In this document: piece by piece, positions 11,601 to 40,805 of the stretch
How the letters are laid out: each line of letters opens with the position of its first letter
Numbering within the stretch: position 1 is the stretch's first letter
Source of the DNA: Marsupella aquatica
Taxonomy: Eukaryota > Plantae > Marchantiophyta
Assembly: GCA_973895155.1 (NCBI GenBank)
Contig: OZ316893.1
Coordinates: forward strand, 1,550,860 to 1,614,859
Length of the DNA stretch: 64,000 nucleotides
Direction: 5' to 3'
Notes under the pieces: generated by a model
What the model was told of the DNA's origin: nothing
What the model saw: the letters and a program-made list of their open reading frames with translations, nothing else
The model's database searches: none
Made by a program: the position numbers and the translations under genes

Positions 11601-11740
11601 CAGGGCCTCTTACGGTCCCGGGCATGACTGGTTGGGCCTCACAATCAATGCCTAACCAGTCATGATTGCTGTCCCAACCCATAACACATCCGGGGCGCGT
11701 AAGAAGCTGGAAAATGGGCTTATATGAGAAGCCCTAATAT
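8640..11740. repeat. Satellite-like array, ~270-320 bp unit, ~9 copies in two higher-order blocks (7991-10045 and 10155-11740)
   Basis: Recurring AAAATGAGTGGCCTC..ACACACTGAATGCTATTGTGTT..GGGGCCTCTTAC..CAGTCATGATTGTTGTCCC. Both blocks start with CTCCAGTCTCTAAGTCTAGGGTAATGAGGG. Confidence 0.88.
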
Positions 11741-17107: not shown

Positions 17108-18269
17108 ACAATAGAAGCGTTCTGCAAAGCATCTGGGGAGACAGTCTGTGATTTCTGTTCCCCATCTCTTTCTTCGAATAGCCATCCTTCAATTTCCCAG
17201 GTGTCGAAAGAACAAACGAGATACGTTACCAAATGACGGACTAATATAATATAAAATGTTTGTGGCCGTTGAGGCAGCTCCGATGAATCAATTTTCTGGA
17301 AAATTCAGGAGACCAGATTGATGGTTTGGCGCTAAAGTTGCAATGATTTGGCATCATGTTCACTGATCAGGTTCGAATCGAATTGAAAGCCACTGCTTAA
17401 TTGCAGATTGTCCACCACCAGCCAGCTGTGCATGCGCATGAGTTGAGGCGCTTGACCGAAATCGGGCGTCGACTTGTTGGCAGAATTTTGCGACATGTGT
17501 ACAGCACGGAACGGGAGTTGGAACACGCTTGGCACAGTCTTCAGTTCAGTGATTTCGGTGGTGAGAAACTCGACACCCATGATTGTTGGTCTTGTTCGAC
17601 CTTCGCTAGCGAGGAACGGAGGCTCGAATTGTTTCGCTCAAGACTACATGAGCTCTGGATAACTGCACACTCCCGGGAAGAAGCCTCTTGTGCATACTGG
17701 AGTGTTTGTACTAAGTTATAAGTACATACACTTGATATTTACGTTTATCAAAAATAGAAAAAAAATTATGTAATACATTAAGATGACATATTCCAAAGAA
17801 CTCCCCCTTCTCTTTCCTTCTCTTTAATAGTGACTCCATGGGAACCCCTTCTCTTTCGCTCTCTTTAATAGTGACTCCCTCTTACTAATAAAGCGCAAAC
17901 TGCATACTACTTTTCGCAAGGTAGGGTCTAGAGTGAAGCCTCTAGACCGTAACTCTATGGTCATTATGTGCATGGAAAAAACTTATGACATGACTATGAT
18001 ATATATACATGCCAATTTTATGTGATAATTTTTAAATATTTACACTAAGAAAATATAGGTAGTATTGTTAGGTATTTACTCAAGGTCTAGGGTTACGGCA
18101 TGTAACCGTAATTAGACTAACCGTAGTCGGAGATGTGGTTAGGTTAACTAGGATGCACACTATATGCCAAGCGGTGTTTGCTTGGATAAGTGGAACTTAG
18201 GCTCATTGTTACGGACACTACAACACTACCAACCCCTTTTGCGAACCCCGTCCCATCGCAACTAACAAA

Positions 18270-19880
18270 CACTAGTACATTTTACCTCCTTTTTCCGATT
18301 CTCTCCACATCGGACGCCTTTGTAAAATAAAATTTGAAAAACCATATATCCGATACTACTAGCATCGCAACATGCCATTTTAATAGTATCGGATATCGAC
18401 AATCGGACTTCTATCGGAAAGTCCGATGGTGGGAGAATGGGAAAGTCCGATGGTGGGAGAATGGGAAAGTCCGATGGTGAGAGAATGGGAAAGTCCCATG
18501 CTAGGAGAATGGGAAAGTCCGATGGTGAGAGAATGGGAAAGTCCGATGCTAGGAGAATGGGAAAGTTCGAAGCAATCAAAATGGGATATGCATTTCAGCG
18601 GACGCGACATGCTCAGGTCACCCATCTCTTCCTTTAATTGGGTTTCTACTTTCATTTGGAACTATGAGCTAGGTGCCCATCTCCCTTGACATGTGAACTC
18701 TTCAAATTTTCTCAACTAATTGGTCACCCATCCCAATTGCTATTCCTCCAATATGAGCTTAACTTTGTGGTTCTTATTCCTTACATTGTACATGCAAGCT
18801 TAGCACTTTTGTTGTTTGACTTAGAGTGTTTGGGGATTTTATACACTTGTGAGTTTACTAAGACCCATAATTTGGACCCATTCTTGATCCATTTTTCTCT
18901 ATCATGAGATTAGATCTTTGCATCAAGTGACCTATTCTAGTTACCCTATTACATTCCCCTAGGAGAAACCAATAGAAATCTGGCAGGGGTCATTCATCGA
19001 TAGTAAAGCCCTCCTTCATTAGATTTGATATGGGATAATTATGGCTTATTAGTTATGGATGATATTTTGGTCCTTCCAAAGCCTCAACGTCAATGGCTCC
19101 TGATTGTCTCATCTTTTATCAACTATGTTGTTGTTGGACTTGCAACAAAGACTACATGGGACAAGCAACCTCCTTCTAGATGATGTATTTTGGACTTGGC
19201 ATGTTGAGCACATATTTCCGTAAGGGAACAATATGTTGGGTCTTGGAATGAGGCAAAAACAACACTCAAGTCCATTTGCCTCAAGTATGAAGTTATTCAT
19301 GCATGCAAGAATGATTGCATCTTTTGGGAAGAGTATGTCGGTGCAACCACATACCCCATCTAACACATCAAAACTTTTCATTCTAACACAATCAAAAATT
19401 TTCTTTTTGTCATAACCGGACTTTCCCATACTCCCAGCATCGGACTTTCCCATTCTTCCAGCATCGGACTTTCCCATTCTTCTAGAATCGGACTTTCCCA
19501 TACTCCCAGCATCGGACTTTCCCATTCTCCCAACATCGGACTTTGCCATGTTAGCACAATCGGATATAATATCCGTTATTATTAACTACGGAAAGTTTCC
19601 GATCAATATTGTAACGCACATCATTTTCGTTACAAAAAACATCGGACATATCAATCAAAGTTTCTATTGAGGGATCCGATGTTTTTTCTAACAGATATGA
19701 TCCGTTTTTTAACGCATCGGAAAGGTTCCGTTGTCAATTATATCGGAAATGAAGATATCCGAAGCCGAGAGTATGGCATATTGCCATTTTTTGATAATCG
19801 GAATTTCCGATGCTAAAAGAATCGGACGCCGATTGTTCGCAAAAATTGAGCATCGGAAATCAGCTTAATATGTACTAGTG
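18270..19880. mobile_element. Second, non-autonomous CACTA element nested in the left end of the large CACTA
   Basis: TIR CACTAGTACAT...ATGTACTAGTG, TSD AAA, and inverted arrays of a 24-bp unit (GGGAAAGTCCGATG.. at ~18415-18570; CATCGGACTTTCCC.. at ~19416-19550). Confidence 0.88.
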
Positions 19881-20474
19881 AAAGGACCAAATTATGAAAT
19901 TCCGGCGTTTGCAAAACGCTACGCATCGCAACCCTTTCACATTCTTTGAAACCCACAGCTTCGCAATCGGACTTTCGCAACCTCTTCGCAACACCTTCGC
20001 ACACTGCGAAACTTATTTTATCGCACATAAATCACATTTATGCGATCTCGACAGACTCTTTATCGGTTTGCAACGCGCTCTGAACTATAACTTATTTGCG
20101 AAGCTGTTGTCTTGACAATTCTGTTGCCATTCATATGGTATCGCATAACTGCGTCAGTCAGGGTGTCGCACAATTGCGGAACCAAAAGTATCGCAATGTT
20201 CCAATACTCAATGTATGGCAAGTTTGCGATAGTATGGCGTTCGCATGTATTTCGCAAGGATAGTTTGAGGGCTGGGTTTTGTATATTTGGGTTCATAATT
20301 GGGTTGGGGTCTTATTGCTCCACATGAAGATACCAAAGCAAAACTTTATATATGCCAAAAATCCCTGAATGTACAAAAATTAGGGTTTTCTAAAACCCTA
20401 TGGGGTATCAAATACCAAGACACTGTCCTTTGACTAATCCATATGCCATATGGAGTGAACTACATCTGCATCCT

Positions 20475-22525
20475 CTATAATGGAGCCCGCCTACTCCTCT
20501 TTGCTGGCCTCTTCCCCTTGTCCTTCTTGCTTTGGGCGGGACGAGCTGGACGGGAGGGGGGTGGTGGTGGTGGTGGTGGTGCCTGCTGCTCCTCCCCATC
20601 TGGCTCATCCTCATCATCGTCATCATCCTCATCATCATCCTCCTGGTCTCCTGGTGTGCTAGGTGTGGCAGCACTCCCTGCCCCTTTGGACCCACTCGTG
20701 GTGGCCCCGGTAGTGTCCCCATCATCAGCGCCGCTATCCTCCTCACTGCTATCCTCACTCCCCTCCTGCTCCTCCTTATCCTGCTTCCATGTCACAAGGT
20801 TAATTCGGGTTTAGGGTTAATAGAAAAAATGTATAAACCTTATAAATGGAATGGGTGCGGGTTTAGAAAGGGTACTACAAATCACTCACACTAGCCAACT
20901 CTGCATCAACCAACTCAAAGAGATGTTTGGCCCCATGCTCTGCCCCTATCTCCATCTCCTTTGTTGTTATCTTGCGGCGGTACCTCTTATACTACCACAA
21001 AAAAATGAAACACCAAAACATAAGGGGCCCGGGTTAGTAACTAAGGGTACTTAAGCAAAAAAGGAATCCTAAAAAGGGTAAAAAGGGTACCCTAACCAGA
21101 AAAAAACCCCTTTACCCTAACAAACATTTGTCACTCGACACTAAACATTTTTCAAAATGAAACAAGCTTTGCGAAACTCCCACCTTCGCAAATTCAAATA
21201 TATTTAAGTTTGCGAAATAGACTGCGAATCGGATTGCTTCGCAATGGCTTCGCAAACCTTACGGGAAAAAGGTTATAATAGAGTTTGCGAAACAATTGCG
21301 AGGCAACCCGCTTCGCAATTGTTTCGCAAACTGTGCTTTTAAAAAAATCCGAGAAATGGCTAAGGCACGCAATGTGTCAGGGTGACCTAAAACGAAAGGG
21401 GAGGCCATAAGGGGTAAAGCAGAGGTCTGCGAGGGGCATTGCAGGCAAGCAAACAACAATTGAAGGCGAAGGAAAAGAAGTAGGGGAGGAGGGGAGAGGA
21501 CTCACGAAGGTTGCTTTCAGGCCAGGAAGTCCACCTTGCCCCATCTTGTGTGTGGTCTTGGGGCGTTTGCTGACTCGGTCTACTGCAAGGATGAACTTCT
21601 GGGGTGGTGTCCCCACTTCATCCACGATGTGCTGCAGCTGAGAGACCTTCTCAGCCAATGCCTTGAGGTCTTGGTCTGACTTCCCGGCCTGAAGTGCCTT
21701 GGCCTCCTTCTCCTTCCAGAATTGGAGGTCCTTGGCTGCTTTCAGCTGCACCTCGACCTTATAGAACGCGTTCCACACATCCTCTGTGAATTGCACTGGC
21801 CTCCTCATGTTCCTGTACTCCTGCAAGCTTGCCAGGTAGGCCCTCACCTTCCTCCTATCATGGTATCGTGCTTGAGACATTGAATTCGAAATTCTATCTG
21901 CAAGCCACTGGTCATCAATCTCTGCTCCATTTCTGAATGAATCTTTGACCTGAGTCATTACTTTCCTCTGCTCTGCTCTGCTTAGTTTCCCCCACTCAAC
22001 ACCTCGTGCAAAGCTAGTCCTCACAGCAAGCCTGATAGTGCTCTTTGCCCCAGTGTAGGCCAACTCAGTAGGAATGCCCTCAACCAAGGCAATCAATGGC
22101 AGCTTCTTCCTCTCTTCCTCCTTTTTCCGCTGCGCCTCACGTTGTGCTCGAATCTCATCTCGTTCCTCCCTTCTCCTCTTCTTTTCGAGGGCTGCAGGAG
22201 AGAGTACTCCTGCCTTAGCCCTCTCCTCCTTCTTTCGTTTCTTCTCTCTGGCCTTCTCCTCAGCTGCAGCCTTTGCCTCTTTCTCCCTCTGAGCCTGCCC
22301 TGCTGCAACCCCGGTTTGCAAAGCTTTCCCTAGAATTGCACTCAAAGAAGCAATCCCAACTGGTGTACTCAAATCCAAATGGCTCAGTTGTGTGGCATTG
22401 AGATGCTCGGCCATCAAATTCGTCCATTGATTACTCTCCTCATTCCTATTCCCTCCATTGCCATTGCCACTCCCACTCCCACTTGCCCCTGCCCCATCCC
22501 CTCCACGCCCTCCACTAGAATCCAT
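20475..22525 (-). CDS. CACTA accessory (TnpA / Ptta-En/Spm-like) protein, 3 exons (21506-22525, 20890-20991, 20475-20780), ~475 aa
   Basis: Two phase-0 GTGAG..AG introns join into one open frame. It has a coiled-coil N-terminal region, RP..F.EDVW and HKMGQGG motifs reminiscent of Transposase_24, and an acidic/Pro-rich tail ending in an NLS-like KKDKGKRPAKRSRR. Confidence 0.7.
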
Positions 22526-23878
22526 AGCTATCCAACACCAAGCGCGCGCAAGCTCTCCTCCTGCCCTCCCTCACTTCAAAAAACGTCGAATGGGCCTCGT
22601 AACCCGGCGGGAAGGTCCGAATGCCCAGACAAAATACATTTGCAACGCAGTCCGCATCGCAATTTGCGAATCAGCCCGCTTCGCAACTAGTATCTCAACT
22701 TTCCAAAACCAATGCAAAACCACACGCTTCGCAAAGCTGCAGAGACGCGAAAAAACGCTCTCGGGCTCTGTTTTTCCGAAGCTGTTGCGAAACATTTTGC
22801 TTCGCAAATAATGTGACCAAATTCTGAAGCAGGTTGCGAAGCAGGTCGGTTCTCAATATCGTGGCAATTCCTGGCGAAATTTTTTTTCACATTCTTTCCC
22901 TCCTCCTTTTGTTTAGGCCATGTAAGTTATACTAGGCCCTTTTGTGCAATTAAGAAATTCCGCCGTTTCAAATCCTAGCATTTGTTAGGGTTGGGTCTTG
23001 GATGAAGTTGGTTTTTTAGGGGTTAAAAGCGAGATTACCAGTCAAACCTTCCGTTTTTTAAGCTATACATGGTGTGGGTGTAGGCTAATTTTGATAAGAG
23101 TTGGGTTTTGGTTTAAAATTAATAAGTGAGGAAAGGGTTTAGGATTAAAGTTGGGTTTGGGTTTAGGGTTTAAGTCTTTAATTTTGGGTTTAAGCAGGGT
23201 TTGCATTTATGGTTGTAGGCTTTTAGGGTTCAAGCAAGGGTTTAGGGTTTAAAACAAAAGAGAGGAAGGGGATTGGGAGTGAGGGTCTAGGTTTTTGTAA
23301 TAGGTCAGAGGTTTGGGGGTGAGGGTTTGGAAAAGGCAAAGCAAGGTTAGATGAGATTAATGTTTTAGTTGTTTTACCATGGGTTTTATGGGTTTTAATG
23401 GGTTTATGGATCTTTTGGGTTTTAATGGTTTTTCCATGGGTTTTATGCTAACAAAGGAGGAGGAGCTATGACAACTTGCAGGGTGCGGCACTTTTGCATG
23501 AATTGATACTAGCTAATGCGTATGCATCGTGAGAGCCCGGGCATCTGGAGGTACGGACTAAAATAGATGGGTCTAGTTAGGCTTATTCATGTAATTAAAA
23601 TTTTTGGTTCCCACTATCTATAAAGAGGACATGTATGTAAGGTGTTCGCTTTGTGTACTTGCAGCTTTTCTCATACTTCCAGATTCGGTTCATTATTTTT
23701 GAGCCACAAGACCTATTGGCACCGCTGAGCCTGGGTCTCAGAAAGGTATTTTTTAGTGTTCCTTTTGTGTTTGGTTTCATGTCATCATTACTTGAGAACT
23801 TACATTTGTCCAGCTTGATATTGTGATGTTATTTGGTAATAACCCCTAACTTGCAAATTATACATCTTTGTAGGGGCA

Positions 23879-25029
23879 ATGTCTTCATCTTCTGAGATCT
23901 CCACCACAGATTCTTCCTCCTCCGATGAAGATATACCACCTCCTCCTCAACCTCACACGACTGCACCTCCTCCTCGTGGTCCACCCCGTCAGCTTTGCCA
24001 ATGTGCCAAATGCGTGGGTCAGGTTTCCCAAAAGTCCTATATATGCACCCAGCATATTGAGAGATATGGACGTTACGGACGTCATACAACAGGGGCTTCC
24101 TCATCCCATGTGGTAAGTGTTTACGCCTTAGTTTCTACCCTATTTCCACATCGCAATGGTGAAGGTTTTTAATTTCACACCTCTTGTTGTTTGTTTTGGT
24201 TTGGGTGGAATAGGTATCTAGTAGGCCTAGACCTGCGGCATCAGCACCTTATGTCCCATCACAAGGTGTTCTAGATGCTATAGGCAATGCATTCTCACAA
24301 GCCTTGGGTCTAGCAACAGCCCCCTCCAGTCCTAGGGCAGTTGGGGGTGAGCCTATTGTCCCAAGAGGGAGAAAGCGTTCCAAGAGACGGCCCCGAGGGG
24401 ATACTGATTTGTACAAGGCAGTGGTTACCGGTAGGTGGGGTGATTGTGAGTTTACTGGCACATGTGTTCCTATCATCAAGGACTGGGATCCCCAGACTCT
24501 TGGTTTGCCACAAGAGCTTTCCTATGGTGAGGAGGTAGAGGTTTGGGGAAGACGTTGGGTTATCAAACCTTCCACACTTGGGGATAGACATGGCTATGGA
24601 GTTTTTGCTTGTGAAGACATCATTGTGGATACCAAGAGTGGTAGTGGTGGACGCGGTCGAGAAGGACCTACGTTGTTTCCTTATGGTGGACCCATCTACA
24701 AGAGAAGACATTGGAACATGATCCTTGCACAACATCCTGAGTGGAAGACTTATGCCTTGGAGTTAGATACTTTTGATGGAAACACTAGGAGGTATAGTGA
24801 GCAACGGGTGATAGATGGGGACCCCATACGAACTGGGAATATAGTTGGTTTCATAAACAGTACTGTGGGGACTCGCCACAAGCGTAGGCAAAATTGTGAG
24901 TGGGTATTCATTGAGTGTCCTCCACCAGCCCCTTATGGCTAGACATATCATCATGACCATTGTCTGGTTGTAGCTACTAGGACCATTCACTCAGGTGATG
25001 AGTTGTTTACTCACTATGTGTGGGATTAG
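23879..25029 (+). pseudogene. Transposase-associated Zn exon (23879-24112) plus SET-domain exon (24214-25029) with one in-frame TAG at 24940-24942
   Basis: Exon 1 encodes CQCAKC...H..RYG and ends at a GTAAGT donor. Exon 2 has SET motifs GYGVFACEDI, YGG, IDG..GNIVGFINS, and, after the TAG, VVATRTIHSGDELFTHY. Confidence 0.8.
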
Positions 25030-26815
25030 AAAATGACCATACACATGGCGTTTGGCCACATTTTGTATTTACACCAGTACCGATATTATTTCATGTTTGC
25101 ACACCCCCATATATTCTTCTACATGTTGTAACTATTTGCTTTGTAACTTTCAATTGTTTGCATTGTTTTTAGAATGTGCGACCCTCTCAAAATATGTTAC
25201 CGCAGAGATTGAGAGCAGCATATCGAGAAATGGGTATGCCGGAAGAAGGACAAGGCTCTGAGTCACATTCCTCATCAAGTGACAGTGGAAGCAACAACCC
25301 TGATCGCAATGTACCCAGAACATATGAACAGGTTATTGATGACCAAGATAGAGCCATGGATGATTTTATGGTTGATTGGTTTGGTGTTGACGTCCCTGGT
25401 GATGATGCTGAGGTGTCTGCTGATCAAGGAGGTCATGTGCCCCCCAATGATCCACGACCAAGACATACCCCCGAGGGACAGCGCCAATGGGAGGAAGCAG
25501 AGGAACATGCCCGAACTCCTATCTATGAGGGTGCTCGTTTGAGTCGTCTTTCTGCTATCTTGGGGTTGATGAATCTACAGGCCAAACACAAGGCAAGCAA
25601 TGCCTTGTTATCTGATATGTTTGCATTTTGCCATGACCTTATGTTACCTTCTGGCAATGTGTTGCCAGGAACTTGGAAGGAGGCCAAGCGTGTTCTCTCA
25701 TCAATTGGCATGGAATATCATATCATTCATGCATGTGTGAATGATTGCATGTTATTTCATGGGGCCGATGAGAAGAAGACACAGTGTACTGAATGTCATG
25801 AGCCACGGTATGACCCCAACATGATTACAAAGAAGGTGCCAAGAAAAGCTGTTCGTTGGTTTCCCATCATTCCTCGGTTGTTGCACATGTACAGGTGTTC
25901 TGATTTGAACACGATTTCGGACCGAACAAGAACTATTTCCTCTAAACGAGAAGTGTATTTTCATTTTCCGCCGAATCTCGCGAAATCGGCAGTTTTTTTC
26001 ATCAAAAACACGTTTTTGGGGAAATAATGTAATTCATATCGGAGTTTGGATTGAAACAGCAAATTTAATAATGATCAAAACCAATGAAATTCATGCTAAC
26101 AAACATTCATATTATCAAGGAACAATTAGATCCGAAAAACTTTCTCCTCAATCTCATATTCACGCTCTCCGAAGATATATGAAAGGTCTTATCTATAAAT
26201 CCATATCCACGTTTCGAGCCAAGTGCGATAACTGTATCGGACTCCGGATTTGAGCCACGAAAGCTCCGACCCAATCTTAGTTTTCTCAGTTTTTGGATAT
26301 TTACCAAAAATATTTTACATCACAGTCGATAAGAATTACTGCACGATTCGTCAAACTTACCTTGCAGTTACCTCCGCAATTGACCAGTTACCTCCGCAAG
26401 TGACCATAGTCAACATGCCATTCTTTCAACAGCAATGCGCAGTCCGATAAAATTATCGCGAAAACTACGGGCGACAAAAATACTAGTCGACAATACTAAG
26501 ATCCTTTGGTTCATCGGTTAAATTTCAAAATTCCTATCCATATAAAGAAAACTTTTCGCAATACCAACATCAGATAAATTTATCGCTTCAATTTCAAAAT
26601 TGCAACTTCCATATGAAGGAACCACTTTTGCAATACCAACATCAGATAAATACACTCTGAACCACACAACCCGAAGTCAGGGGAGGCAGAGTCAATTACA
26701 TTCAAAGTGTTTCTTTACAAGCTCTTCTCGAGCAAACCTTAGAGCACCCAAAATCGACTAGAGGAATGAGGAGTGCGATAAATTTATCGGATGTTCGCAG
26801 CAATGCCTCATCCAC

Positions 26816-27364
26816 TCAGACTCGTCCATGCCATGCAAGAATTGTCCGCTTCCCGCTTTCTCCAAGATTTATCCAAACTCTACGAAACTGATCTAACTGC
26901 TCATACGAAAAGCACCCAAGCATATCTATGGGAGGGAGGAAATGAGTTTCCTCTCGGAAGACCCTAGCAATATGTATGTTTGAGAGAAGGTCGGCATTAG
27001 GAATGCTTGCGAGCATTTTGTTTATGTCATTGATCTCACGGACTACATATTTCAATAGCGCCCAAAATCGTGTACCAACAACAAGATGGTTCCATTTCTT
27101 TGAGGTAGCTCCAAGACAAATGATTGTTCTCATTCGAGTTAGTCGTTCTTCTGGTAGAAGTTTTAGGTCAAGGCCAAGGTGTTCATCTTGTGTGCAAGAC
27201 AAGGCTAGGAGGGGCCAAATATGAGATTCAACGAGTTGATCGGGAAGTCCATTCAACAAACTTCCGCATTCCACACCGGGCACTTTTCCTCGAATATATT
27301 TCCTACGCTCGTGGGCTAAAACGGATCCCATCTTTGCAACAATTAGATTCTCTGATGCAGCCAT
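26816..27364 (-). CDS. Cargo ORF, 182 aa, F-box-like motif
   Basis: ATG-initiated open ORF. LNGLPDQLVESHIWPLL...ICLGATSKKWNHLV resembles the F-box consensus (LP...I...L...(V)xKxW) with an insert. Confidence 0.5.
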   Translation of the reverse strand: MAASENLIVAKMGSVLAHERRKYIRGKVPGVECGSLLNGLPDQLVESHIWPLLALSCTQDEHLGLDLKLLPEERLTRMRTIICLGATSKKWNHLVVGTRFWALLKYVVREINDINKMLASIPNADLLSNIHIARVFREETHFLPPIDMLGCFSYEQLDQFRRVWINLGESGKRTILAWHGRV

Positions 27365-27537
27365 GAAGCAGAGCTACCAAAACCACCAATAAAAATACCT
27401 TCAATCACCAGGTGTAACCGAACACATCCACAGTACCAACCCTGCACGATAGTTTAACGATTAGGACTCGTGACATATTATATTCGCTGCGCAAGGGTAG
27501 GACTTGTTTATTTAAATATGTCCTTACAAGACGCGCC

Positions 27538-27888
27538 TCAATGAAAAGGTCGAAACACTCGTCGTGAAAGGTTCACCCAAGGGTCTTTGTTCCAAATCTT
27601 ACAACAGAAGTGAGCCTGTTTGTGGTACTTGTTGTCAAGACGACGACAACAATAGTTACAAGAAAACTCAAAAGAATGTAAACACGCCGTTAACATCAAC
27701 CTCGAACGAATTGGAACTCCTGCATCATTCATTCCGCAAAATTCAATGCGGAGAGGATTCTGCCTATCTCCAGGATCAGTACCACCCATCCACAATGCTC
27801 CTATACCGATGGGGAGAACTTTGAGTCGCACGAGTCTCTTGTACAACCGGCGTGCACGTTTGACACGATTTTCAAGGAAGATAGCCAT
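27538..27888 (-). CDS. Cargo ORF, 116 aa, basic with a Cys/His-rich C-terminus, unknown function
   Basis: ATG-initiated, CLH..SCNYCC...H..H.CC cluster, same strand as and upstream of the F-box-like ORF. A TATA-like CTATATAAAG lies at ~28481-28490 on the minus strand. Confidence 0.35.
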   Translation of the reverse strand: MAIFLENRVKRARRLYKRLVRLKVLPIGIGALWMGGTDPGDRQNPLRIEFCGMNDAGVPIRSRLMLTACLHSFEFSCNYCCRRLDNKYHKQAHFCCKIWNKDPWVNLSRRVFRPFH

Positions 27889-30800
27889 TTGTCACAATAC
27901 CTATTGTCCATAGAGTGCAATCAACCTTCCGTTGTGCCTCCTAAACCCGACAACAGTGCGACATCAGAGATGAAGATGAGTCTCCAAACAAAACAAAGGA
28001 AAATTATTCTCACAGGAGGATGCGATAAGTTTATCGCACTCCGCATTCGAATTGAAAATATGACTTCCTCAGACACCTAAGCCCTGAATTCAATCTTTCA
28101 CAAAAATGACAACTCCGATAAATTTATCGAATTCTCAATTACTCCTCTTTCCATGAAAGGAATGAAGACTCCGATAAATTTATCAGAATGAAGGCAATAC
28201 CTCTCTAAACACTGGATCAAATGATTGCAACAGAGGAATGCAGAATGCGATAAATTTATCGTAGTCCGCTCGGATCTGGACATTTTACACTAAATGACTA
28301 GTTAGTCTTACATGGAGAACTTGAACAGGAATGGCTGTTCCGATAAATTTATTGGGTTTTCGGTAGAAAGAGTCGAATCGCTTGGGAGGAATGTAAGACT
28401 CGATGGGAGTTTGGTATTCGCTCTCAGTCAGGAGATATTTGCTCTAGCGAAAGCAAACGTTTTATGGGCAGCCCACTCCTCTTTATATAGGAGACGCTCT
28501 AAACCATGGTTAATTTCCCCTTAACCATGGTTAAGTTTCCCCTTTACCTGGGTTAGTGCGTGGTCGTTCCTGGATTACGCGGTTCGGACCAAGTTACTCG
28601 CAGTTCGGACTTTTTCACTGGCAAAATGTAAAACCCGATGCACGTATCGCTCCCTGCATTCCCGCGGCAATGCAATGGAGGAAAGTGGCGTTTCGGAGAG
28701 TTTTGGCCAGTTTTATCGGTCATTGCATTGCCTTAGAAAAAAAACGGGATCGGGCTAAACGAGAACTCCGACACACTTCTCGGTCGGTCCGAAATCGTGT
28801 TTTTGGCAGAGTTGATGGTAGGGCATAAGACTCATTGATCAGAGCCTGGTGTTATGCGGTTGCCAATTGACTCTCCTGCAGTCAAACATATTGAGGAAAC
28901 ATGGCCAGACTTTGCACATGATCCTCGTCATGTGAGGTTGGGATTGGCATCTGATGGGGTTAGTCCTCATGCCCTTGGAGGCAAGGGAAGACCTACATCA
29001 GTTTGGCCTATGGTTGTGATGAATTACAACCTTCCACCATGGCTATCCATGAAGAAGGGGTTCCTCTTGCTGTCTTTGATTATTCCAGGTCCAAAAAAGG
29101 TGAAGAACTTTGACACTTATTTGGCACTATTGATTGGAGAACTCCAAAAACTGTGGGGTGGAGTGTGGGCATATGATGGCAGGAAAAATACAGGAGGCAT
29201 TCCACGTGTATTTAAATTGAGAGGGGTAGTTTGTTGGACAATGCATGACTATCCTGGTAAGATGACTTTTTGACCATATGCCACCCTTCTTTGATATGCT
29301 CTTTAATATACTTGTTTGTCATGTGACAACCCTAACATTTAGTCTGGTTTTATTTTTGGTGTAACCAGGGTTTGGCTTTGTCTCTGGATTGCAAACTCAG
29401 GGGTACAAAGCTTGCTCCACCTGTGGTCCACAATTGCAAGATATGGCAATTTGGTCCCCATGGCTTAGGAAGATTGTTTACATTGGGCATACAAAGTTTC
29501 TTCCGATGGGGCATGAGATGAGGTCTGACCCACTTTTATTTTCCTCCTTTGACATGCCCCTTGGTGATATGCGGGAAATTCCGGAACCAACAACTTTTGG
29601 GCATTGGAAGTCACTAGCTGATAGGGTGGCAGACCCTGATGATCCCCTCACCTTTGATGGTACTGGGTTGACGAGGTGGAGTATACTAGCCAGTTTGCCC
29701 TATTGGTCAGAGTTGAAGATCCGCCATCTTTTAGACCCCATGCACATAGAGGGAAATGTGGGGAAGGCGTTGATAGCTCATTTTTATGGGGAGAAGGACA
29801 CTAACTTCAGGGAGGCATGTGAAGAGTTGGAAATGCATCCAGATGTATGGGTACAAGTTGATCCTGCCACAGGTTTGGAACATCGTCCTTCTGCTCCTTG
29901 GGTGCTTAGTGTTGGCCAAAGACGTGAATTCCGGAATCGTATAGGGGAGATGCGATTTCCTACAGGCTATGGTGCCAATTTGAGGAAAGCTTTTGGGATG
30001 GAGGACAATCACAAATGGCCACGGTATCTCAAGACACATGACTATCACCGCTTATTGCAGCATATATTGCCAGTGGCAATTATAGGTTGGGGACCAAAGA
30101 AGTGCAAGATGCCATTTGGTCATTGGGTCGTTTGTTGAGATGGATATGCTCAAAGGAGATATATGTGGAAGAGATTCCTGGAATGGAGGTATTGGCTGCT
30201 GAGGTGGTTTGCAAGTTGGAGAAGGCCCTCCCTCCTTCCTTCTTTGATTGTCAGGTTCATTTACTTGTGCATCTTGTGAGGGAGGTTGCCATTGTTGGTC
30301 CAATTCATTGTCGATGGATGTACTGGCTTGAGCGTTACATGTCAGTCTTGAAGGCTTATGTACGTAACCGTGCACGAGTGGAGGGAAGCATAGCTACAAG
30401 ATACTTGGCTGCAGAGAGCATGTTTTATTGTAGTAACATCTTGGCCACCATTGATCGAACTTTACCACATACTTGGATGGAGGAGAGGCAAGAGGAGGAG
30501 GACCGTTTAACAGGAGCAACAAAAACACGCATGCTTACATCAACAGAGTGGACACAGTTGAATACATTCATGTTAAGTAATAGCAATGTCATGGATGAAT
30601 GGAGGGAGTTTTATGACAATGCCAAAAGAATGAGTCAAAGGGCAAGGATTTTTCCTAAGTTGCATGAGTTTATGAAGGAAAAGTTGGTTGAGTTGGATGG
30701 CATTTTGGCACAAGGAGGAGATGTCTCACAGTTTCCTACTATGACAAATGACATTCGGACCATTGTTCATGGCCCTTTGAGAGTGGTAACATCCAAGATG

Positions 30801-33363
30801 GCCATGTGGACCCAAGGGAGACACTTCAGGTTTCACTAGTTCCTAACCTTGTTTTCCATATTCATGTACTACTACTTAAGATATAGTAATCATTTTACTT
30901 AAGATAAGTGTGTTTTTCTCTTTTGGTATGAAAGGTTCCTCATAACATGATTAGTGTTTTTTGTGTAGTAGTAACAATATATGGGTCTTGTTAATTTCAG
31001 GATTTCTTCCCTTGATGAGAAGAGGGCTCGTACTTTTGATTGTGAAGTTCAAGGGCAGTTTTGTCAGGACTCCCGGAGTAGCCGACATGACAGGAACATT
31101 GTTCGTGATGTTGTGCCACATTATGGGAAGATAGAGGAGATTTTGGTGGTCTCATATGACAACCAATCTAAGTTTGAGGAGTATGTCTTCAAGTGGAAGT
31201 GGTTCAAAGTGAACCTTGTTGGTAATAATCGCACTGTACTCCAAGATGAGAGTGGGTTTACACGGTTGAGGACAAGTGCCACTAGTTTTCAAGCATCTCA
31301 TTGGCAAACGTCAGAGCCATTTACTTTCCCATCTCACTTGGAGCAATGTTTCTACGTTCCATACCCCTTAGACCCAGAGTGGTCACTTGTCATCACATAT
31401 GTGCCACAGTCTCGTTCCATTGTTTCAGACAAGCCAGACACTATTTTTGTGTCAGATGTAGAGGACATTGAAGGTGACCAAGTGTGAGAGACACTTATGG
31501 ATATTTAAACCAAAAATCTATATCATGGATTGTTCATGTTGTTTCTTAATTAATATTTCATACACCATTAGTGTGGTAGGTATTTTCATTTTGGACTCCT
31601 ACTTTCAAAAGAGGTCATGCATATAAGTGACATGGGTACTCCCTCCCTTATCCCTCCTCCCTCTTTGAACCCAAACTCTCCTTCCTCTTCCAAAAACTCC
31701 ATAGCTTTTTCTCCTCCCTCCCTCTTCGCTAAAGTCTCCTATTTTTAGTAAACCCTCTTTGGACTCCCTTCTTCCTCCGTCCCTCATCCACCTTCCAACT
31801 CCCTTCCTCCCTCTTTCACCTTTCACCTCCCTCCCTCCTCCTTCCCCATTCAAACTCTAACCTAGATGCACACACAAGTCTAACATAAACGTTTGCAAAC
31901 TGTTTGCGAAACTAAACAAATCCCAACCAAATCGCAATTCTGCCATTTAAACCGTTTCTCAATTATTCCATACTATACGCTTCACTATTTTGCGATATCC
32001 AGACCATCCCACCTTTACCATCCACATCGTTTCGCACATTTGCCATACAAACCCATCGCAAATTGTTTGAAGCTAACCTTTTTGCAAACATCCTCCAATA
32101 CTAATTGTTTTGCATCATTAATGTTACCGTGGTTTCGGACTTTTGGAGCGGTCGCGGAGCCTTCGTAATGTGTTTTGTAATCTCTGTAGTTTCGCAAAAT
32201 ATTGTGATACAATAAAGTTCCCAAAATGTTTGCGATGCAAATCGCATGGAAGACCAAAGTTGCAATACCACAAGTATCGCAAATTGCGATGCGTATTGAG
32301 TCATCAACGGTTTGAAGCATCTGGAATCGCAAACGTGTGTCCGGACGCAAATGAGCTTCGCAAAAGGGCAAAATATGTTGTAGTGGGAGCCACTTGAGAG
32401 ATGAGGAGAGCTTACACTATGGAGACTTGGTTTAGCCAACGGGCTTAGAGTTCAGTAAAGTTCTCTTGTGTGTTCCCGTGGACGTAGCCTCGAGGAGGTG
32501 AACCACGTATCTCTTGTGTCGACTACTTGCGCGTTGGATGTGTCATGTGCTTATCGTTACGAGTGTTGTCTATGCTCAACAATTGGTATTAGAGCATCCC
32601 TGGGAGGTGACATTGTTCGTGACGGGATTTCGTGACGATTTTATTTTTTCCAGCGTTGAGTGTCGGTGGATTTTCCGGAGTTCCGTCGCATAGAACTTGG
32701 AGTTTATGGGCTCAACGAATAGATCGGGGCAAGGGCTTTCTAACGGTGCAAAGAAATCGTTGAACGAAGATCGTGGTGCGGAGAGATCTAAGTTTTCATC
32801 GTCCTGGAATTTGTGAAGAAAGTTGGCAACATTCGTGTTCGACGGTTTTTCAAAGGAGGGACCAGAGTTTGTTTTCCCGACAGTGTGAGCTCTAGGGTGA
32901 AGGAGGCGTCGCATGTTGTAGCTCTACTTGTAGATCGGGACGAGCTGATCGTTTTGGTAGATGGTTTGTTGCTGAGTGTGTAACGAGTGCGTCACAACGA
33001 GCAAAAACAACATTCTGATTTTCTGACCGGCTATGGAGTCCTCTTTTGCCTGAGCGAGGTTTCTCGTCATTGCGCTCAACTCGGAGGGAGAGACGTGAAG
33101 TGCTTGGGCTGAACGGATAGATCACGAAGAGGTGATCATTTTGAGTCCAAGATTGATGATTTCGCCCATGGGAGGAAGGAGTTCTGAGTTTTTGTCACTG
33201 ATTGACCAGCAAACGGTGCGGGTGCGCAAATCTTTCCAATCCACCGACATCGGTTTCTGATTCTTCACCATAATCCGAACATTACAAGTTGCAAGCTCTT
33301 TTCGTTTGATGTCCACAAGCATTTTTGGATTTCTTACGAGCCAATTTTTTGTTCGAAAAATAT

Positions 33364-33365
33364 TC

Positions 33366-33404
<39 letters not shown>
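33364..33404. repeat. (CT)n microsatellite
   Basis: Direct reading of the sequence. Confidence 0.9.
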
Positions 33405-33408
<4 letters not shown>

Positions 33409-35918
33409 GCATTTGACCTACAATACTGAATAAAATTAAAATTATCTATAAAGGATGAAAATCTTACATACAACTAGTAAAAAATTAAAAAATTGCCCTA
33501 TACCGTGGCTTATATTACAGATACTTTACTAAATACGTAAAAATACTTCTTACATGTATTAGGTTTTACTAATGTAAACCACCACCCTGGCGGCTGCCCT
33601 AACAGCGCTCACGATTTCATCCCGTCACGCAGCTGCCTCCCCTAGTTTCCCTGCATACCTTAAAAAGCACTGTAGTTGTTCATTATGTTCATTCTAGGCG
33701 CATCTTGCTCTATGACTGTTCCTGACTAGGTCCTTTCCTAACAACTGTTTACGTTGGAGATAGCGAGTTGCTTCTTGAATTTTTTTCCTGACAGGATATT
33801 TTTCTCAGTACATTGTGACACCTTTTCTGTCAGCTCTCGTTGGTTTAGCTTGACATTATCTATCATTGCTCCAGTACTCTAGATTCTCTATTGTAGTGAC
33901 TTTTCCATAGAGCACTGTTGTGTCTGTTTTTCACACAGGCTCCACCAGCATGGCTCAAGTCTCTCTAGGTATGATTCATGCTTTTTCCTGGTTTATTACT
34001 CCTTTCTTCTCTATAGTGCTAGCCTGAAATTAATGTACGTCTCCCCGTTACCGCCGCGGTTCAATGGTAGCAGAAATGTACAACAAGAATCATTTTTTGA
34101 GAATCTTGATTCACCCTGGGGACGGGGGCTGAATGATGACCTCGGGGATGTATTGCAGTTTGTGTCCACTGCTCTTTAATTTCAGTTGATGGTCTACTTC
34201 AATTTGCTTGACCAGCTTATATGAAGCTTTTTATACTAAGGGTTTTTTCCTACACCATCTAATGGCACCTTTGCTGTGACACTGGAATTGTTCATATATG
34301 TTTTTTATAAAATAGTACCATCAATCCTATTACCTTGCACATGTCCAACTTTACCATACTGTGTTCTGACTTTTTATGCGTTCCATGCCATATCCTATAA
34401 ATATCCTCTTTGAAAACCTGTCCTTTTTGCACTATTTTTTTGTCTACAATAAGTGTTGCTTTATCTATACTACTCATGTATATAGGTACTGACAGCTTCT
34501 TACTAGGCTTTTCTGCTTTATGACTTTTCAGTCCTCTGATCTATACTCCTAGGTCTTTTTGTTAGACCTTGTACTTATTAAATCCCTTCCTTTTTTCACC
34601 CGGTTCCTTTGATACTTTATTGTGCTCCACCCATGACTGGGGACGCTATAGTGTAACATACTTTTCTTATGCGTTTACTGATCTCTGACTCATGCTAGGA
34701 TATAGCTACAGTGTAAATATTGACCTCAACAAGTCTCGGACCTGTTTTCTCCCTCATAATGGTCAGGCTGTATTATTATGTTAATCTATCTACTTGCGAA
34801 GGACTTGGTGTATGTGCTCATCCATGTGTTGCTATCTCCCTGCCCTGACCTATGATGCCGTGACTTTTTATGTGACTTGTCAATGTAAAGTATTGACTTG
34901 GCCTTGAATGGGTGTCGTCTTTTTAACATATCTCTCTCTCTCTCATCATTGGAAGGAAATTTTTCTTTGGGGCCCCTTGCCGGTGACGAGTGCGAATTTG
35001 GCTTCTTTTGTGGTTATTTCCTTTGTATTTTCAGGGGTCAACCCCCTTTTGTGTGTTTATACATACGTCTTTACCCCCACCCCACCCCCTCATCGACACA
35101 CGGCCCTCCCTGCACCCCGGATACGCGAGCTGCAGCCGCGGCTGCATTCACGACCAAAGCGTCGGCCGGCTGCTTCTTTGCCCCCATGTCATCGCCGGTC
35201 CTCCCTCACCCTCCCGCCGGTTGCCACTCCATCGCGGCCCTTCACGCAGTCGACGACTGCTTCCGACAGCCATTTTGCGGCTGCTTCTCCCGACAGCCCC
35301 GCACGACCCGCCCTGTACGCGCCCATCCACACGACCCCTGCCCCCCCTTTTTTTTAAAGCCCGATTTAATAAAGGGGATTTAAACCCCCTTTAGCCCCTA
35401 TCTTTTACTCTTTTTCCCGGTTTCTGATTGGTCGCCACATCCCGGGACCTGCCGCCCTCCACTTTAACCGCTTGGACAGGGGGAACGGCCCCCTGTGAGC
35501 CCTGCTGCTCTGTGCGGGAATATTCCGGAAAATAGAGAGAGTATTTTCGGCCGTCCATCGAAGATTCCATTCGCCAAACGATAACTTTTTTTGGTTCGTC
35601 TTTGGCAAGTTGCTAGCCATCGGAGTTGGCAACGCGGTGCACCAAAAGAATTGCATTTCCGACATCGGGTACTAGTTCATATTTTGGTTATTCCCCGAGG
35701 TGGTCAAAACGGGGGAGAATTCCAAGTTTTACCCACCCCGACCAAAAAGTGAATAACTTTTACGTCGGAGTTCGGTTTCAATTTTGGTTTTCAATATTGG
35801 AGAGCTAGGCTTATGGGCTATGCAGCGGTGATAAGTTTTGAGTTTTTTTAAGAAGTTGAAAAAATGTCATTTTTTCTTGCATTCTCACATGAGTGATTCA
35901 TAGGAGATTTTCGAAGAA

Positions 35919-36917
35919 GTGGATCTTGAAGCACGAGGATCACCACGACGGTTTGAGGAGGAGAGAGAGGAGCAGGAGGAAGCGCATGTGACACCGGTAC
36001 AATCACCGGTGCAAGGAGTAGAGAGGATTGTGAAGGAAAAACAGATGGCATCTAGGTTCGGAGGTGTCAAGTTTGAGGTGGAGAAGTATGATGGGCGTAC
36101 GGACTACTTGCTCTGGGAGAAGCAAGTGAAAAGAGTTCTTCACGCTATGGGCCTAGATCATCTTCTCTCTACACGAGAGATGTACGATGATGAGGAGGAG
36201 ATTCCACTCAAAAGGTGGAGGCATGAACAAGTAATTGCAGTGAATACGGTGATGCTTTATTTGAAACCGCATATCATCAAGAAGTTGGATGACTACGCGG
36301 ATTGTGCATCTCTGTTCAAAGCCCTAAGGGAGAAGTACTATCGGGAGGATGCATCAGATCGATTGTACAAGAAGTCTCTCTTGATGAGCCTTAGGCTCAA
36401 AGAGGGGAACAAACTCCAGGATCACTTGGATGAATTTGATAGCCTAGTTGTTGATTTGTCTAATCTCGGTAAGGGCGTTGAAGAAGAGGACAAGGCCTTG
36501 CTTCTTCTCAACTCCTTACCCCCATCTTATCAGGGTTTGAAGCAGGTTCCCTTGTATAGAGACTTGAAGTCTATTTCATACTATGAGGTGGTAAGCTCTT
36601 TGCTGTCAGATGATGCACAGAAGAAGTTGGGTCAAGCCCAGACAGCATTGTCATCTGGTGATGCCTTGAATGTGAATCGTGGGAGATCACAACGGCGTCC
36701 CGAGCAGCGCACGAATGGCAAGGGACGAAGTAAATCTAGGACAAGATTTGCTTCAAGGGGGAAGTCCCAAGAGAGAAAGCCAGTAGTCTGCTGGAAGTGT
36801 CACAAGGTTGGTCACGTTAAGAGGGATTGTAAGGGTAAGGCAGTTGTATCTTCATCAGCCAATGTGGCTAGTGCTGATGGAGAAGTTGATTTACTCAATG
36901 ATGAGTATGTTTTATGA
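35919..36917 (+). CDS. gag: Copia Gag (likely ATG at 36045)
   Basis: KFEVEKYDG..DY.LW, LLLNSLPPSY, and zinc knuckle CWKCHKVGHVKRDC. Confidence 0.9.
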   Translation: MDLEARGSPRRFEEEREEQEEAHVTPVQSPVQGVERIVKEKQMASRFGGVKFEVEKYDGRTDYLLWEKQVKRVLHAMGLDHLLSTREMYDDEEEIPLKRWRHEQVIAVNTVMLYLKPHIIKKLDDYADCASLFKALREKYYREDASDRLYKKSLLMSLRLKEGNKLQDHLDEFDSLVVDLSNLGKGVEEEDKALLLLNSLPPSYQGLKQVPLYRDLKSISYYEVVSSLLSDDAQKKLGQAQTALSSGDALNVNRGRSQRRPEQRTNGKGRSKSRTRFASRGKSQERKPVVCWKCHKVGHVKRDCKGKAVVSSSANVASADGEVDLLNDEYVL

Positions 36918-39900
36918 AGTCAGGAGTATGCCCTGTGCACATCATCTAGAAGAGCAAATGATGTATGGATTCTTGATTGTGCTTGCTCCTTTCACATTTG
37001 TTACATTCGCGAGTATTTTAATTCTTATTCTGTGTCAAACGGTTCAGTTTTGATGGGAAATGATCACTCCTATCAAGTTGAGGGTATTGGGTCTGTAAAA
37101 ATTCAAATGTTTGATGGCATTGTGCGCATAGTGTCCGGAGTCAGGTTTGTACCTGGCATGCGTAAGAATTTGATTTCACTCGGTGTGTTGGATACAAATG
37201 GTAATCAATGGCGAGTAATGGATGGTGAACTTCAAGTCATATCGGGAGAGACAGTGATTTTGAAGGGGAGCAGACAGAAGAATTTGTATTGTTGCAGGGC
37301 AATACAGTATGTGGAGAGGCCAATGTAACCAAGTCTCACAAGGAAATGACTCAACTGGCCTCATTCACAATTGGGTGTACCTCGCAGGAACCACTTTTAG
37401 GACTCAAAAATATGTTTTTTAAGTGAAAAATGACTTTCGTAACATGGAAAAAGGTTCATCATGATTTTATCTCAAGACATTTAAGTCTAATTTTTTCACA
37501 AGACTATTTTACATGGTGTAACCTACCTCACCATGTAGATACATCAGGTTTTTAACTGTTTTAAGGGATCCTGTTATTGATGGCCCTAAATAAGCCAAAA
37601 TTACTGATGATTTTTGTCCTGTACATAAAGATTTAGTGTGTGTCACTATTTAAGTTTTGAAATATAAGATTATGCTATTAGTATGCATGCTTTGGTAAAA
37701 TTTCATTATCTAAAATGCATTTTTTAGAGTCCTTTTGAGTCCTAAAATGATGTGACCCATTGCGTGACAAGTCCTTTTATCAATCTTTGAAGGACATATA
37801 AGGAAACCTTCAAAGTCTCAAATGCTAGATAGTTTAATGAATGTTACCAACCTATAGGATGTTTATTAAGTGTAGTACATCAAATTTTCTATATCATCTC
37901 ATTACACCCTAAAAATGATATCCTAAAGCATAATAAACTATGGTCATTTTTGAGTGTGACGTTCCTTTTGGGTCCTCCAATTGTGAATGAGGCCAACTGT
38001 GGCATTCACGGCTAGGCCACATGAGTGAGAAGGGTTTGGCTATCTTGCGGAAGAATGGGCTCATTTCTGATTTGCAGTCTTGTAAATTGGAATTCTGTGA
38101 GCATTGTATTTTTGGAAAGCAGCATCGTCGTGCTTTCGGTGTTGAGCGGCTCTTGAGTACATACATAGTAACGTGTGGGGACCATCCCCGACTCCCTCAC
38201 ATTCTGGAAAATTGTACTATGTATCCTTCATTGACGATTACTCAAGATTTGTATGGATTTATTTCATGACGCATAAGTCTGATGTCTTGTCCATTTTTAC
38301 AAAGTGGAAGGCCCAAGTGGAGAATCAGACAGGAAACACGGTTAAGTGTTTGGATACCAGGGTGAAGAGTCTGAGGTCAGACAACGACGAGAAGTACACT
38401 TCAATAGAATTTGAAGAGTATTGTGTAAAACAAGGGATAACTCGTCATCTCACCATAGTTTATACTCCGCAACAGAATGGTGTCGCTAAGAGGCTCAATC
38501 GAACACAATTGGAGCGGTCACTGAGTATCTTGAGCCAATCAGGTTTACCACCAGAATTTTGGGCAGAAGCTGTCAATACTGTAGCTTATTTGGTAAATCT
38601 TTCTCCTTCTAGTGCAATCAATTTCAAAACACCGTTTGAAATGCGTTATAAACGGCAAGGAGACTATCATGGCTTGGTAGTTTTTGGAAGTGATGCATAT
38701 GCTCTCACACCAAAGCAGAATATGACCAAGTTGGATCCTACGTCCAAGAAATGTATTTTTCTTGGGTATCAGAGTGGTGTGAAGGCCTACAGGCTATGGG
38801 ATCCTATTGCCTGTAAGCTTGTTGTCAGTAGGGATATTTCCTTCAATGAATCCAGATTATTGAAGAAGGGGGAGAATACTCAGGTCTCCTGTACAGACAA
38901 AGGAAAATCTCATATCCCGGATCTCATTGAGGGGGAGATTGATCATGAAGTACATGATCGGAGAGAAGGAGGTGCTCCAAGCATGGAGCTGGTTCCTGTG
39001 CCAGAGGAACAAGAGGAGTTTGTTGATGCTGGTGAGCAGCAAGTGGATGTTGCTGAGCTTCAAATTGTACCAGTAGATGCAATTCAACCGGAGTCATCGA
39101 CTAGAAGAACATCTGGTCGCACTGGACGCGCTCCTCCTAGGTATGGACAGTGGGTTGATTCATCTCAACTGCAAGAGGACGATTTTGCAGTTGATGATGA
39201 GGGTGATGCGTTGGTTTTGGAAGAAGGGGAACCTTCTTCATTTCATGAGGCAATGCTTCTAAGGAGAAGCAGGAGTGGACTGCAGCAATGCAAACGGAGA
39301 TGCAGTCACTAAAGGACAACAAAACTTGGGAGCTTGTTAAGCTGCCTAAGGGTCAGCAAGTGGTGGACAGCAAGTGGATTTACAAGCTGAAGGATAATTC
39401 CGCAGGAGGTGGATCGAAGGTCTACAAGGCTAGGTTGGTAGCAAAGGGATTCACACAAGAGAAAGGTGTGGATTACAATGAGGTCTTCTCACCAGTTGCT
39501 AAGTACTCTACAATACGGCTATTGTGTGTGCTTGTTGTAATGTTTAGTCTACTGCTAGATCAGATGGATGTTGTCACAACTTTCCTCTATGGCACCTTGG
39601 AAGAGGTGATCTTCATGAGACAGCCGCTAGGTTTTGTGAAGAGATGACAGGAGGAATTAGTTTGCAGATTGCTAAAATCCTTGTATGGATTGAAGCAATC
39701 ACCAAGACAATGGAACAAGTGGTTTGACGATTGGATTTGGTCACAAGGTTTTCACAGGAGTGTGTTTGACCCTTGTGTATATTTGAAACCGGTGAAGAAT
39801 GTTGTCTTTGGGTTCATTGTTTTAGTACTTTATGTGGATGACATGCTTATTGCGGCCAAGGATAGGTGTGAGATTGTTAAGCTTAAGGCACTGCTAAGTG

Positions 39901-40805
39901 CAGAGTTTAAGATGAAGGACCTAGGGCCAGCTAAGAGGATTTTGGGTATGGAGATCACTAGGGACTTGGAGGCTGGTAAGCTATGGTTGACACAAAGCAG
40001 TTATGCGAGGAAGGTAATTGCTAGGTTCAACATGGGGGATAGTAAGCCAGTAAGTACCCCTTTGGCTGCACACTTCAAATTGTCATCGGCTTTTTGTCCT
40101 ACAGATGCGACAGAGAAGGGGCAGATGTCAAAGGTTCCTTATGATAAGGCAGTGGAAAGTCTCATGTATTTAATGACTTGCACTAGACCTGATCTTGCCA
40201 TGGCTATGGGTAAGGTGAGCAGGTACATGTCAAATCCAGGGAAGGTACACTGGGAAGTAGTGAAGTGGATTATCAGGTACTTGAAGGGTACCGTGGATCA
40301 TGGTCTTTTATTTGATGCAAATGCAAAGAATGCAAGATGCTATGTAGATTCTGACTATGGACAATATCTGGACCGAAGGAGATCAACAACAGGGTACGTG
40401 TTCACACTTGGCGATGGATGCATAAGTTGGAGGTCTATTTTGCAGAAGTGTATTGCTCAGTCTACTACAGAAGCGGAGTATGTTGCAACAGCGGAAGCAG
40501 TGAAGGAAACAATTTGGTTGGATAGACTTATCACTGAAATGGGATTGCCACAAGGGAATGTGAAGCTCCATTGTGATAGTCAAAGTGTGCTCCACCTTGC
40601 TGTGAACCAGGTGATGGACAGTAGAGTGAAGCACATAGACGTCAGGTACCATTTTATCAGGCAGGCTGTGTCTGATAATTTGTTTGAACTAGTCAAGATA
40701 AACGGTAAACTCAACCCAGCTGACGCATTTACCAAAGTGATTCATTCGGAAAGTTTCTCTAGACATCGTGATGTGCTGCAGGTTTTGCAATTGCGTCACA
40801 AGTAA
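36918..40805 (+). pseudogene. pol: Copia pol (protease, GAG-pre-integrase, integrase, RT, RNase H), disrupted
   Basis: WILDCACSFH, LWHSRLGHMS, FIDDYSR..LRSDN..TPQQNGVA, YKARLVAKGFTQ, LYVDDML, and STTEAEY..CDSQS..KHID. Several frameshifts and stops plus a MITE insertion. Confidence 0.93.
37357..37994. mobile_element. 638-bp MITE / non-autonomous TIR element in copia pol
   Basis: 18-bp TIR GGCCTCATTCACAATTGG / CCAATTGTGAATGAGGCC, 4-bp TSD AACT, AT-rich interior. Removing it restores MTQLWHSRLGH. Confidence 0.92.

Follow-up and report, generated by a model that had tools for sequence, protein, structure and literature searches.

We found that a CACTA transposon of the liverwort Marsupella aquatica carries a SET exon between exon 1 and the TnpD exons of its transposase gene, that this exon encodes a SET fold, and that exon 1, the SET exon and TnpD have alike been under long-term selection. 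The element lies in the window, the stretch of 64,000 nucleotides that was analyzed and to which all coordinates refer. Our preferred reading, to which we assign a probability of roughly 0.55, is that it is a decayed member of a CACTA family of bryophytes, that intact copies of this family splice exon 1 to either of two acceptors, and that one of the two products, a zinc-motif-SET protein, would be the element's own lysine methyltransferase. The gene is laid out as follows.

23879..24112, + strand: exon 1, from ATG 23879, 78 codons; a Ser/Pro-rich start, then a C-x-C-x2-C-x13-H motif
24113..24213, + strand: predicted intron 1a, GTAAGT...ATAG, 101 nt, GC 0.39
24214..25030, + strand: SET exon, with linker, beta-hairpin and SET core; TAG at 24940-24942; first Met at residue 169
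25031..25172, + strand: spacer, T-rich, 142 nt, ending in the TnpD acceptor
25173..29258, + strand: first TnpD exon downstream of SET; encodes the start of PF02992; broken by an insertion and by TGA 28836-28838
29371..30830, + strand: TnpD exon, with the remainder of PF02992 and with PF13960; frameshift near 30087
31002..31487, + strand: last TnpD exon; PF13952 at 26.1 bits, under its cut-off of 30.6

The SET exon lies within a CACTA element

The element and the sequences that flank or interrupt it were delimited as follows.

18216..32385, + strand: CACTA element, ends CACTACAACA / TGTTGTAGTG; about 9.7 kb without its two nested insertions
18213..18215, + strand: left target-site duplication GGA, flanking the CACTA element
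32386..32388, + strand: right target-site duplication GGA, flanking the CACTA element
18270..19880, unstranded: nested small CACTA derivative, ends CACTAGTACAT; AAA duplication and 24-bp subterminal repeats
25908..28801, unstranded: 2.9-kb insertion in TnpD; terminal inverted repeats, TTTG duplication of 4 bp

An earlier note on this DNA had called the element a CACTA transposon, and terminal repeats, a GGA duplication, TnpD domains and subterminal repeats are indeed all present. The terminal inverted repeats read CACTACAACA from 18216 and its inverse ending at 32385, and the same start was found upstream in two metagenome loci (L005 and L007). The element splits a copia-type LTR into halves that match the partner LTR, near 41.1 kb, at 98.7% and 95.9%; the partner carries GGA only once. 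The subterminal motif TTGCGAA occurs 6-40 times per kb near the element ends and flanking a divergent ORF (see below), and 0.03-0.16 times per kb elsewhere. TnpD gave Pfam scores above cut-off for PF02992 (130.7 bits) and PF13960 (114.6 bits), and the C(2)C and H(3-4)H motifs, which the accessible text of PMC12730594 defines for CACTA TnpD, are present in the list of open reading frames as ACSTC and LKTHDYH. A search of longer proteins with the TnpD N-terminus returned four distant matches, three of them named from angiosperms.

The small CACTA derivative and the 2.9-kb element are later insertions into the CACTA element. An alignment of a contig from sequencing run X1 begins at 19881, at the boundary of the small derivative, with 29 more letters unaligned, and the 2.9-kb insertion is skipped by contig joints in all four DNA runs. 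The small derivative is non-autonomous, contains a TnpD remnant and sits 54 bp from the left end of its host; the 2.9-kb element is abundant, and its terminal inverted repeats begin AACACGATTTCGGACCGA.

The internal stop codon of the SET exon is private to the window copy

The SET exon matched PF00856 at 29.4 bits (cut-off 22.4, E 1.1e-6) when its stop codon was read through as X, and the part before the TAG gave no match; the SET assignment of the earlier note is therefore borne out by Pfam once the TAG is read through. PF00856 was also matched by 26 of 30 SET family members. It had been proposed that TAG 24940 arose from CAG, and position 24940 was found to be C (CAG) in all 27 covering contigs (3, 7, 13 and 4 in runs X1-X4, DNA runs from two studies that together cover all 30 bins). 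The stop is thus private to the window copy relative to the sister copies in these four runs. The codon aligned to it is sense in 25 of 26 metagenome loci, and L008 also has TAG. The window copy departs from the sister-copy contigs at T83, K141 and C235 as well.

Long sister-copy contigs differ little from the window (in one case by 1 difference over 1226 nt), and because they read CAG at 24940 and skip the 2.9-kb insertion, the family looks young and its SET exon open. The TAG had been described as the only lesion. This is true just for the SET reading frame, where it is the single break; in the element as a whole TnpD is broken three more times, by the insertion at 25908-28801, by TGA 28836-28838 and by the frameshift near 30087, so the window copy is dead in both products.

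The order of exons is conserved among mosses and liverworts

A search with the SET exon recovered 42 proteins, of which the named ones are from Calypogeia fissa, Sphagnum species and Riccia sorocarpa, and a profile search recovered 72. Clustering at 50% identity gave 145 clusters with matches within E 0.001, including a few unrelated ones among the weakest, and one cluster at 90% identity has 360 members. We also collected 33 metagenome loci, of which 23 were testable for layout (a complete SET end plus at least 220 nt beyond it). Of these 23, 22 share with the window the order exon 1, SET, TnpD, the remaining locus ending six bases past an AG, and two Riccia gene models (P0056 and P0064, about 40% identity) run SET into TnpD.

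In a tree of 52 SET cores the window pairs with a Calypogeia protein (99/93) within a clade that includes Sphagnum. This tree holds family members only, with two long branches meeting in it, and so does not place the origin of the domain. Within it, the SET of Calypogeia, a leafy liverwort, falls with that of the moss Sphagnum and apart from that of Riccia, another liverwort, and the window is separated from Sphagnum-type loci by a dS of only about 0.8-1.4; the grouping could reflect old paralogous families or transfer between bog plants. TnpD of five Sphagnum-type loci (L009, L010, L013, L023 and L028) shows, opposite window position ~29965, a gap of about 100-160 nt, likely an intron that the window's family lacks. 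Distant SET family members with different cysteine-rich N-termini were seen in Ginkgo (P0195, Gb_21150) and Calypogeia (P0136 and P0220), and these could represent genes of the host, domesticated copies or the origin from which the SET was captured.

The SET core has been under purifying selection

The window was compared with those loci that cover at least 60% of each part, with bootstrap confidence intervals (CI). For the SET core (28 loci) dN was 0.138 and dS 0.884, with pN/pS of 0.25 (CI 0.17-0.35). The values were similar for the Tnp21 part of the transposase (8 loci; dN 0.143, dS 1.10, pN/pS 0.19), for exon 1 (12 loci; dN 0.134, dS 1.36, pN/pS 0.17) and for DUF4218 (pN/pS 0.27), and the bootstrap intervals of the SET and transposase parts overlap. 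The SET linker is much freer, with pN/pS of 0.60. Hence the SET core is under purifying selection, as the transposase is. Among the metagenome copies themselves SET and TnpD show near-neutral decay (ratios 0.40-1.29), as is expected of dead copies.

These results bear on the idea that the SET exon is a passenger, a fragment of a host gene captured in the manner of Pack-CACTA elements and decaying neutrally. The broken state of the window copy would agree with it, as would the distant relatives in one Ginkgo and two Calypogeia gene models. However, the passenger idea is already contradicted by the constraint on the SET core between families and by the exon's position, which is shared by 22 of 23 loci and by Riccia models that are about 40% identical, and the sister copies read CAG; we consider it very improbable.

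Exon 1 may be spliced to either of two acceptors

The end of exon 1 at GTAAGT 24113 in phase 0 was reproduced, in both coordinate and phase, and so were the two phase-0 acceptors, since an AG precedes 24214 and 25173 and both are in phase 0. The donor GT of exon 1 is kept in 11 of 11 loci and the SET acceptor AG, in phase, in 19 of 20. The first Met of the SET exon is residue 169, so translation of this exon depends on one upstream, and exon 1 is very probably spliced to the SET exon. Of 22 loci, 19 retain the TnpD acceptor AG, always 21 nt ahead of the TnpD Met, and the seven codons between the two look coding (pN/pS 0.33, CI 0.09-0.90). We consider it probable that splicing also joins exon 1 to the TnpD exon, the SET exon being skipped as part of a 1060-nt intron. 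A 5' UTR intron ahead of exon 1 is likely.

The earlier note had also seen a transposase-associated zinc motif in exon 1. The motif is there; exon 1 gave no Pfam match, PF13963 included, and the link to that domain comes down to a weak profile match. In relatives PF13963 scored 13-15 bits, under the cut-off of 27.7, in 3 of 39 proteins. Compared with the N-terminal motif of P0045, a PF13963-bearing TnpD with the same zinc-motif spacing, exon 1 scored 10.2 bits, more than all 500 shuffles; against P0047 it scored 3.0 bits, a value that 3 of 500 shuffles attained. Exon 1 may thus be a degenerate, PF13963-like transposase-associated domain, a weak assignment. Exon 1 of the metagenome loci matches that of Sphagnum proteins.

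Proteins gathered by their likeness to SET or to exon 1 included 33 that bear exon 1. Of these, 19 are gene models, which may or may not rest on RNA, with exon 1 joined to SET, 12 read into the intron and two are of the Riccia type; 0 of the 33 join exon 1 straight to the TnpD exon. Contigs of the five sequencing runs span the introns and spacers, behave as DNA, contain no exact splice joint and have no bearing on expression. In one Logan contig of 2141 nt (P0086) the zinc motif and SET form a single continuous ORF; the contig derives either from a spliced mRNA or from a family that lacks intron 1a.

A fusion of SET to TnpD, or read-through from one into the other, was rejected because the SET stop is conserved, none of 23 loci has the GT that the window shows near the end of SET, and the phase of the spacer varies between families. 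The spacer contains neither a donor-like GT nor AATAAA, and the SET exon and spacer hold no internal donor resembling that of exon 1: the only two sites in the SET exon with 6 of 8 matches were the acceptor itself and a phase-1 site.

A different arrangement would be two tandem genes, in which exon 1 belongs only to the SET gene and TnpD is made from its own promoter, starting at the Met at codon 8 of its exon. That Met is kept in the window, in the loci and in the two Riccia models, which fits an independent start, and the absence of a direct exon 1-TnpD joint from the 33 proteins also agrees with two genes. Furthermore, several Arabidopsis EnSpm families are arranged in this way, according to the available text of PMC13547354 / bioRxiv 10.64898/2026.08.24.746577. 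Against it speak the kept in-phase AG and the coding-type conservation between this AG and the Met, the short T-rich spacer of just 142 nt from the SET stop to the TnpD acceptor, and the resemblance of exon 1 to the usual N-terminal domain of TnpD. Two tandem genes appear unlikely.

Under alternative splicing of exon 1, a single promoter, with a TATA-like site near 23618 upstream of exon 1, and the choice of acceptor would determine the product. Use of the near acceptor would yield the zinc-motif-SET protein of about 350 residues, and use of the far acceptor a zinc-motif-TnpD protein.

Fold and active site of the SET domain

The predicted SET fold was found by modeling and structure search, on the close relative P0010. 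The model of this intact relative had a pLDDT of 76 and a pTM of 0.74; one of five fold models reached a pLDDT of 70, and the full-length fold, at 41.8, was set aside. A VIA search with the P0010 model gave SET proteins in each of the 50 rows listed, the best being SETD8 (Z 11.7, rmsd 2.6 over 128 residues), and SET proteins likewise ran throughout the matches listed by Foldseek. A sequence search of solved structures gave nothing significant (best E 0.3).

The bryophyte SET shares its fold with SETD8, MLL/COMPASS, EZH2 and the Legionella protein LegAS4/RomA (Z 10-11.7) and has the GxG, YxG, Asn and ELxxxY positions in common with them. It differs in an extra N-terminal beta-hairpin and in having no post-SET region, and at 16-26% identity no single family stands out. 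SETD8, MLL/COMPASS, EZH2 and ASH1L match within about 1 Z unit, so no methylation target is indicated. Similarly, bacterial, human and algal-virus SETs score about equally, and a viral or bacterial origin is therefore not singled out; a word-pattern search of viral and prokaryote collections found no SET relative, which is weak evidence. The SET exon had been described as ending without a post-SET Cys cluster, and a post-SET region is indeed lacking: the alignment of the P0010 model stops at residue 339 of SETD8 and residue 338 of SET7/9, leaving the post-SET region unaligned, and most family members terminate a few residues past the Tyr of ELxxxY.

Of the 52 SET cores, 49 and 51 retain the glycines of GxG, 46 the motif Asn, and 52 and 49 the Glu and Tyr of ELxxxY; YxG is also kept. 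At the positions that we take to be the Arg and His of the RFxNH motif, Arg is replaced by Gly in 45 of 52 and His by Ser in 49 of 52. The accessible part of a published SET paper describes GxG as cofactor-binding, the C-terminal Tyr as catalytic and post-SET segments as aiding cofactor and substrate binding. The source on a Legionella SET protein, as far as its text is available, reports it as active, and the alignment printed there also lacks the motif His.

Methyltransferase activity is plausible but not assured, and we give the SET product an even chance of being catalytically active. The kept catalytic positions, together with long selection inside a mobile element, suggest that the SET helps the element. 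Our leading guess for its role, a tentative one, is anti-silencing. The zinc-motif N-terminus shared with TnpD may guide the SET product to the element's chromatin, where the mark that it sets would counter silencing, a step that we likewise regard as doubtful.

It is quite possible, although short of even, that the splicing is as we propose and the SET product is instead an inactive binding module, a methylator of non-histone targets (e.g., the element's own proteins) or a damper of the element. The missing post-SET region, given what such segments do in known SETs, the family-wide replacement of the motif Arg and His, and the fold matches that indicate no target would all agree with this. 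Nevertheless, the cofactor-binding GxG and the catalytic Tyr are kept in 49-51 of 52 cores, and the Legionella protein is reportedly active with the motif His likewise missing. The most inclusive form of our preferred reading holds that CACTA elements throughout mosses and liverworts use mutually exclusive splicing to attach the transposase's zinc-motif exon to a pared-down SET enzyme, so that one promoter would give both a transposase and a writer whose mark on the element's chromatin opposes silencing, from an undescribed SET subfamily that functions without a post-SET region; we consider this somewhat unlikely. If true, it would constitute an enzyme-type anti-silencing system in land plants.

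Relation to known SET-bearing elements

SETMAR (Metnase) is a domesticated in-frame fusion of a SET domain with a mariner transposase. As in the bryophyte element, SET and transposase are in one gene; the bryophyte element differs in being mobile and in having a stop codon at the end of its SET exon.

Our literature search, with most subscription journals outside its coverage, as well as Repbase and bioRxiv supplements, where such families may be listed, found no publication describing a plant CACTA with a SET exon. The earlier note knew of no CACTA with this layout, but SET-bearing transposons are already in print, even in the same superfamily. Red-algal Plavaka elements (EnSpm/CACTA superfamily) carry a PF00856 SET cargo, of putative function there as here, in the gene PAG2 (bioRxiv 10.1101/2025.02.11.637652). 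In the available text PAG2 is a separate gene in elements of 17-19 kb, with SET fused to a PF01555 DNA methylase, whereas in the bryophyte element the SET forms an exon within a TnpD gene of plant type (PF02992/PF13960); PF01555 had no match in 30 SET family members or in pieces of the window. SET genes are also described, in the accessible parts of PMC12730594 and PMC4067079, in HarbingerS and MuDR elements of Phytophthora and in Helitron/Helentron, DNA transposons of other superfamilies and hosts; unlike the bryophyte exon, the Helentron SET is its own intronless ORF.

A precedent for the proposed splicing is found in maize En/Spm and Arabidopsis EN/SPM3, which make TnpD and TnpA from one spliced gene, and Arabidopsis Spm3 TnpA has anti-silencing activity, according to the available text (PMC13547354, bioRxiv 10.64898/2026.08.24.746577). 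In these elements, as proposed for the bryophyte family, a single CACTA gene yields both transposase and accessory product; the latter is a DNA-binding regulator, whereas the bryophyte one has an enzyme fold.

Transposon SET cargo is thus known from oomycetes and red algae, and the published descriptions, in the text available, come without a functional test. The recent amplification of the present family, the intact-looking members in sequenced mosses and liverworts and the prediction of two splice junctions make the role of a transposon-borne SET directly testable. If active, the protein would also reveal the working of a SET domain that lacks a post-SET region. The family also matters for annotation: the Sphagnum members among those listed are annotated as ordinary 'SET domain-containing' or hypothetical proteins.

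A divergent ORF and other features of the window

21377..22525, - strand: divergent ORF, first ATG at 22525; a second exon may be 20475-20810

This ORF is head-to-head with the transposase gene and bracketed by TTGCGAA clusters. It had no notable Pfam match and a pN/pS of 0.38; a homologue occupies the same position in L002, L005, L007 and L014, and two other metagenome loci with more than 2 kb of upstream sequence have none. From its position only, we regard it as a candidate TnpA-like accessory gene, which would be separate and divergent in the bryophyte element, unlike the TnpA of En/Spm.

Finally, the copia-type retrotransposon into which the CACTA element inserted spans 18140-18215 and 32386-41400, with gag at 35904-36917 and its 5' LTR split by the element. 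Tandem arrays were observed elsewhere in the window, at 8650-11650 (units of ~290 bp) and 62144-62566 (88-bp units).
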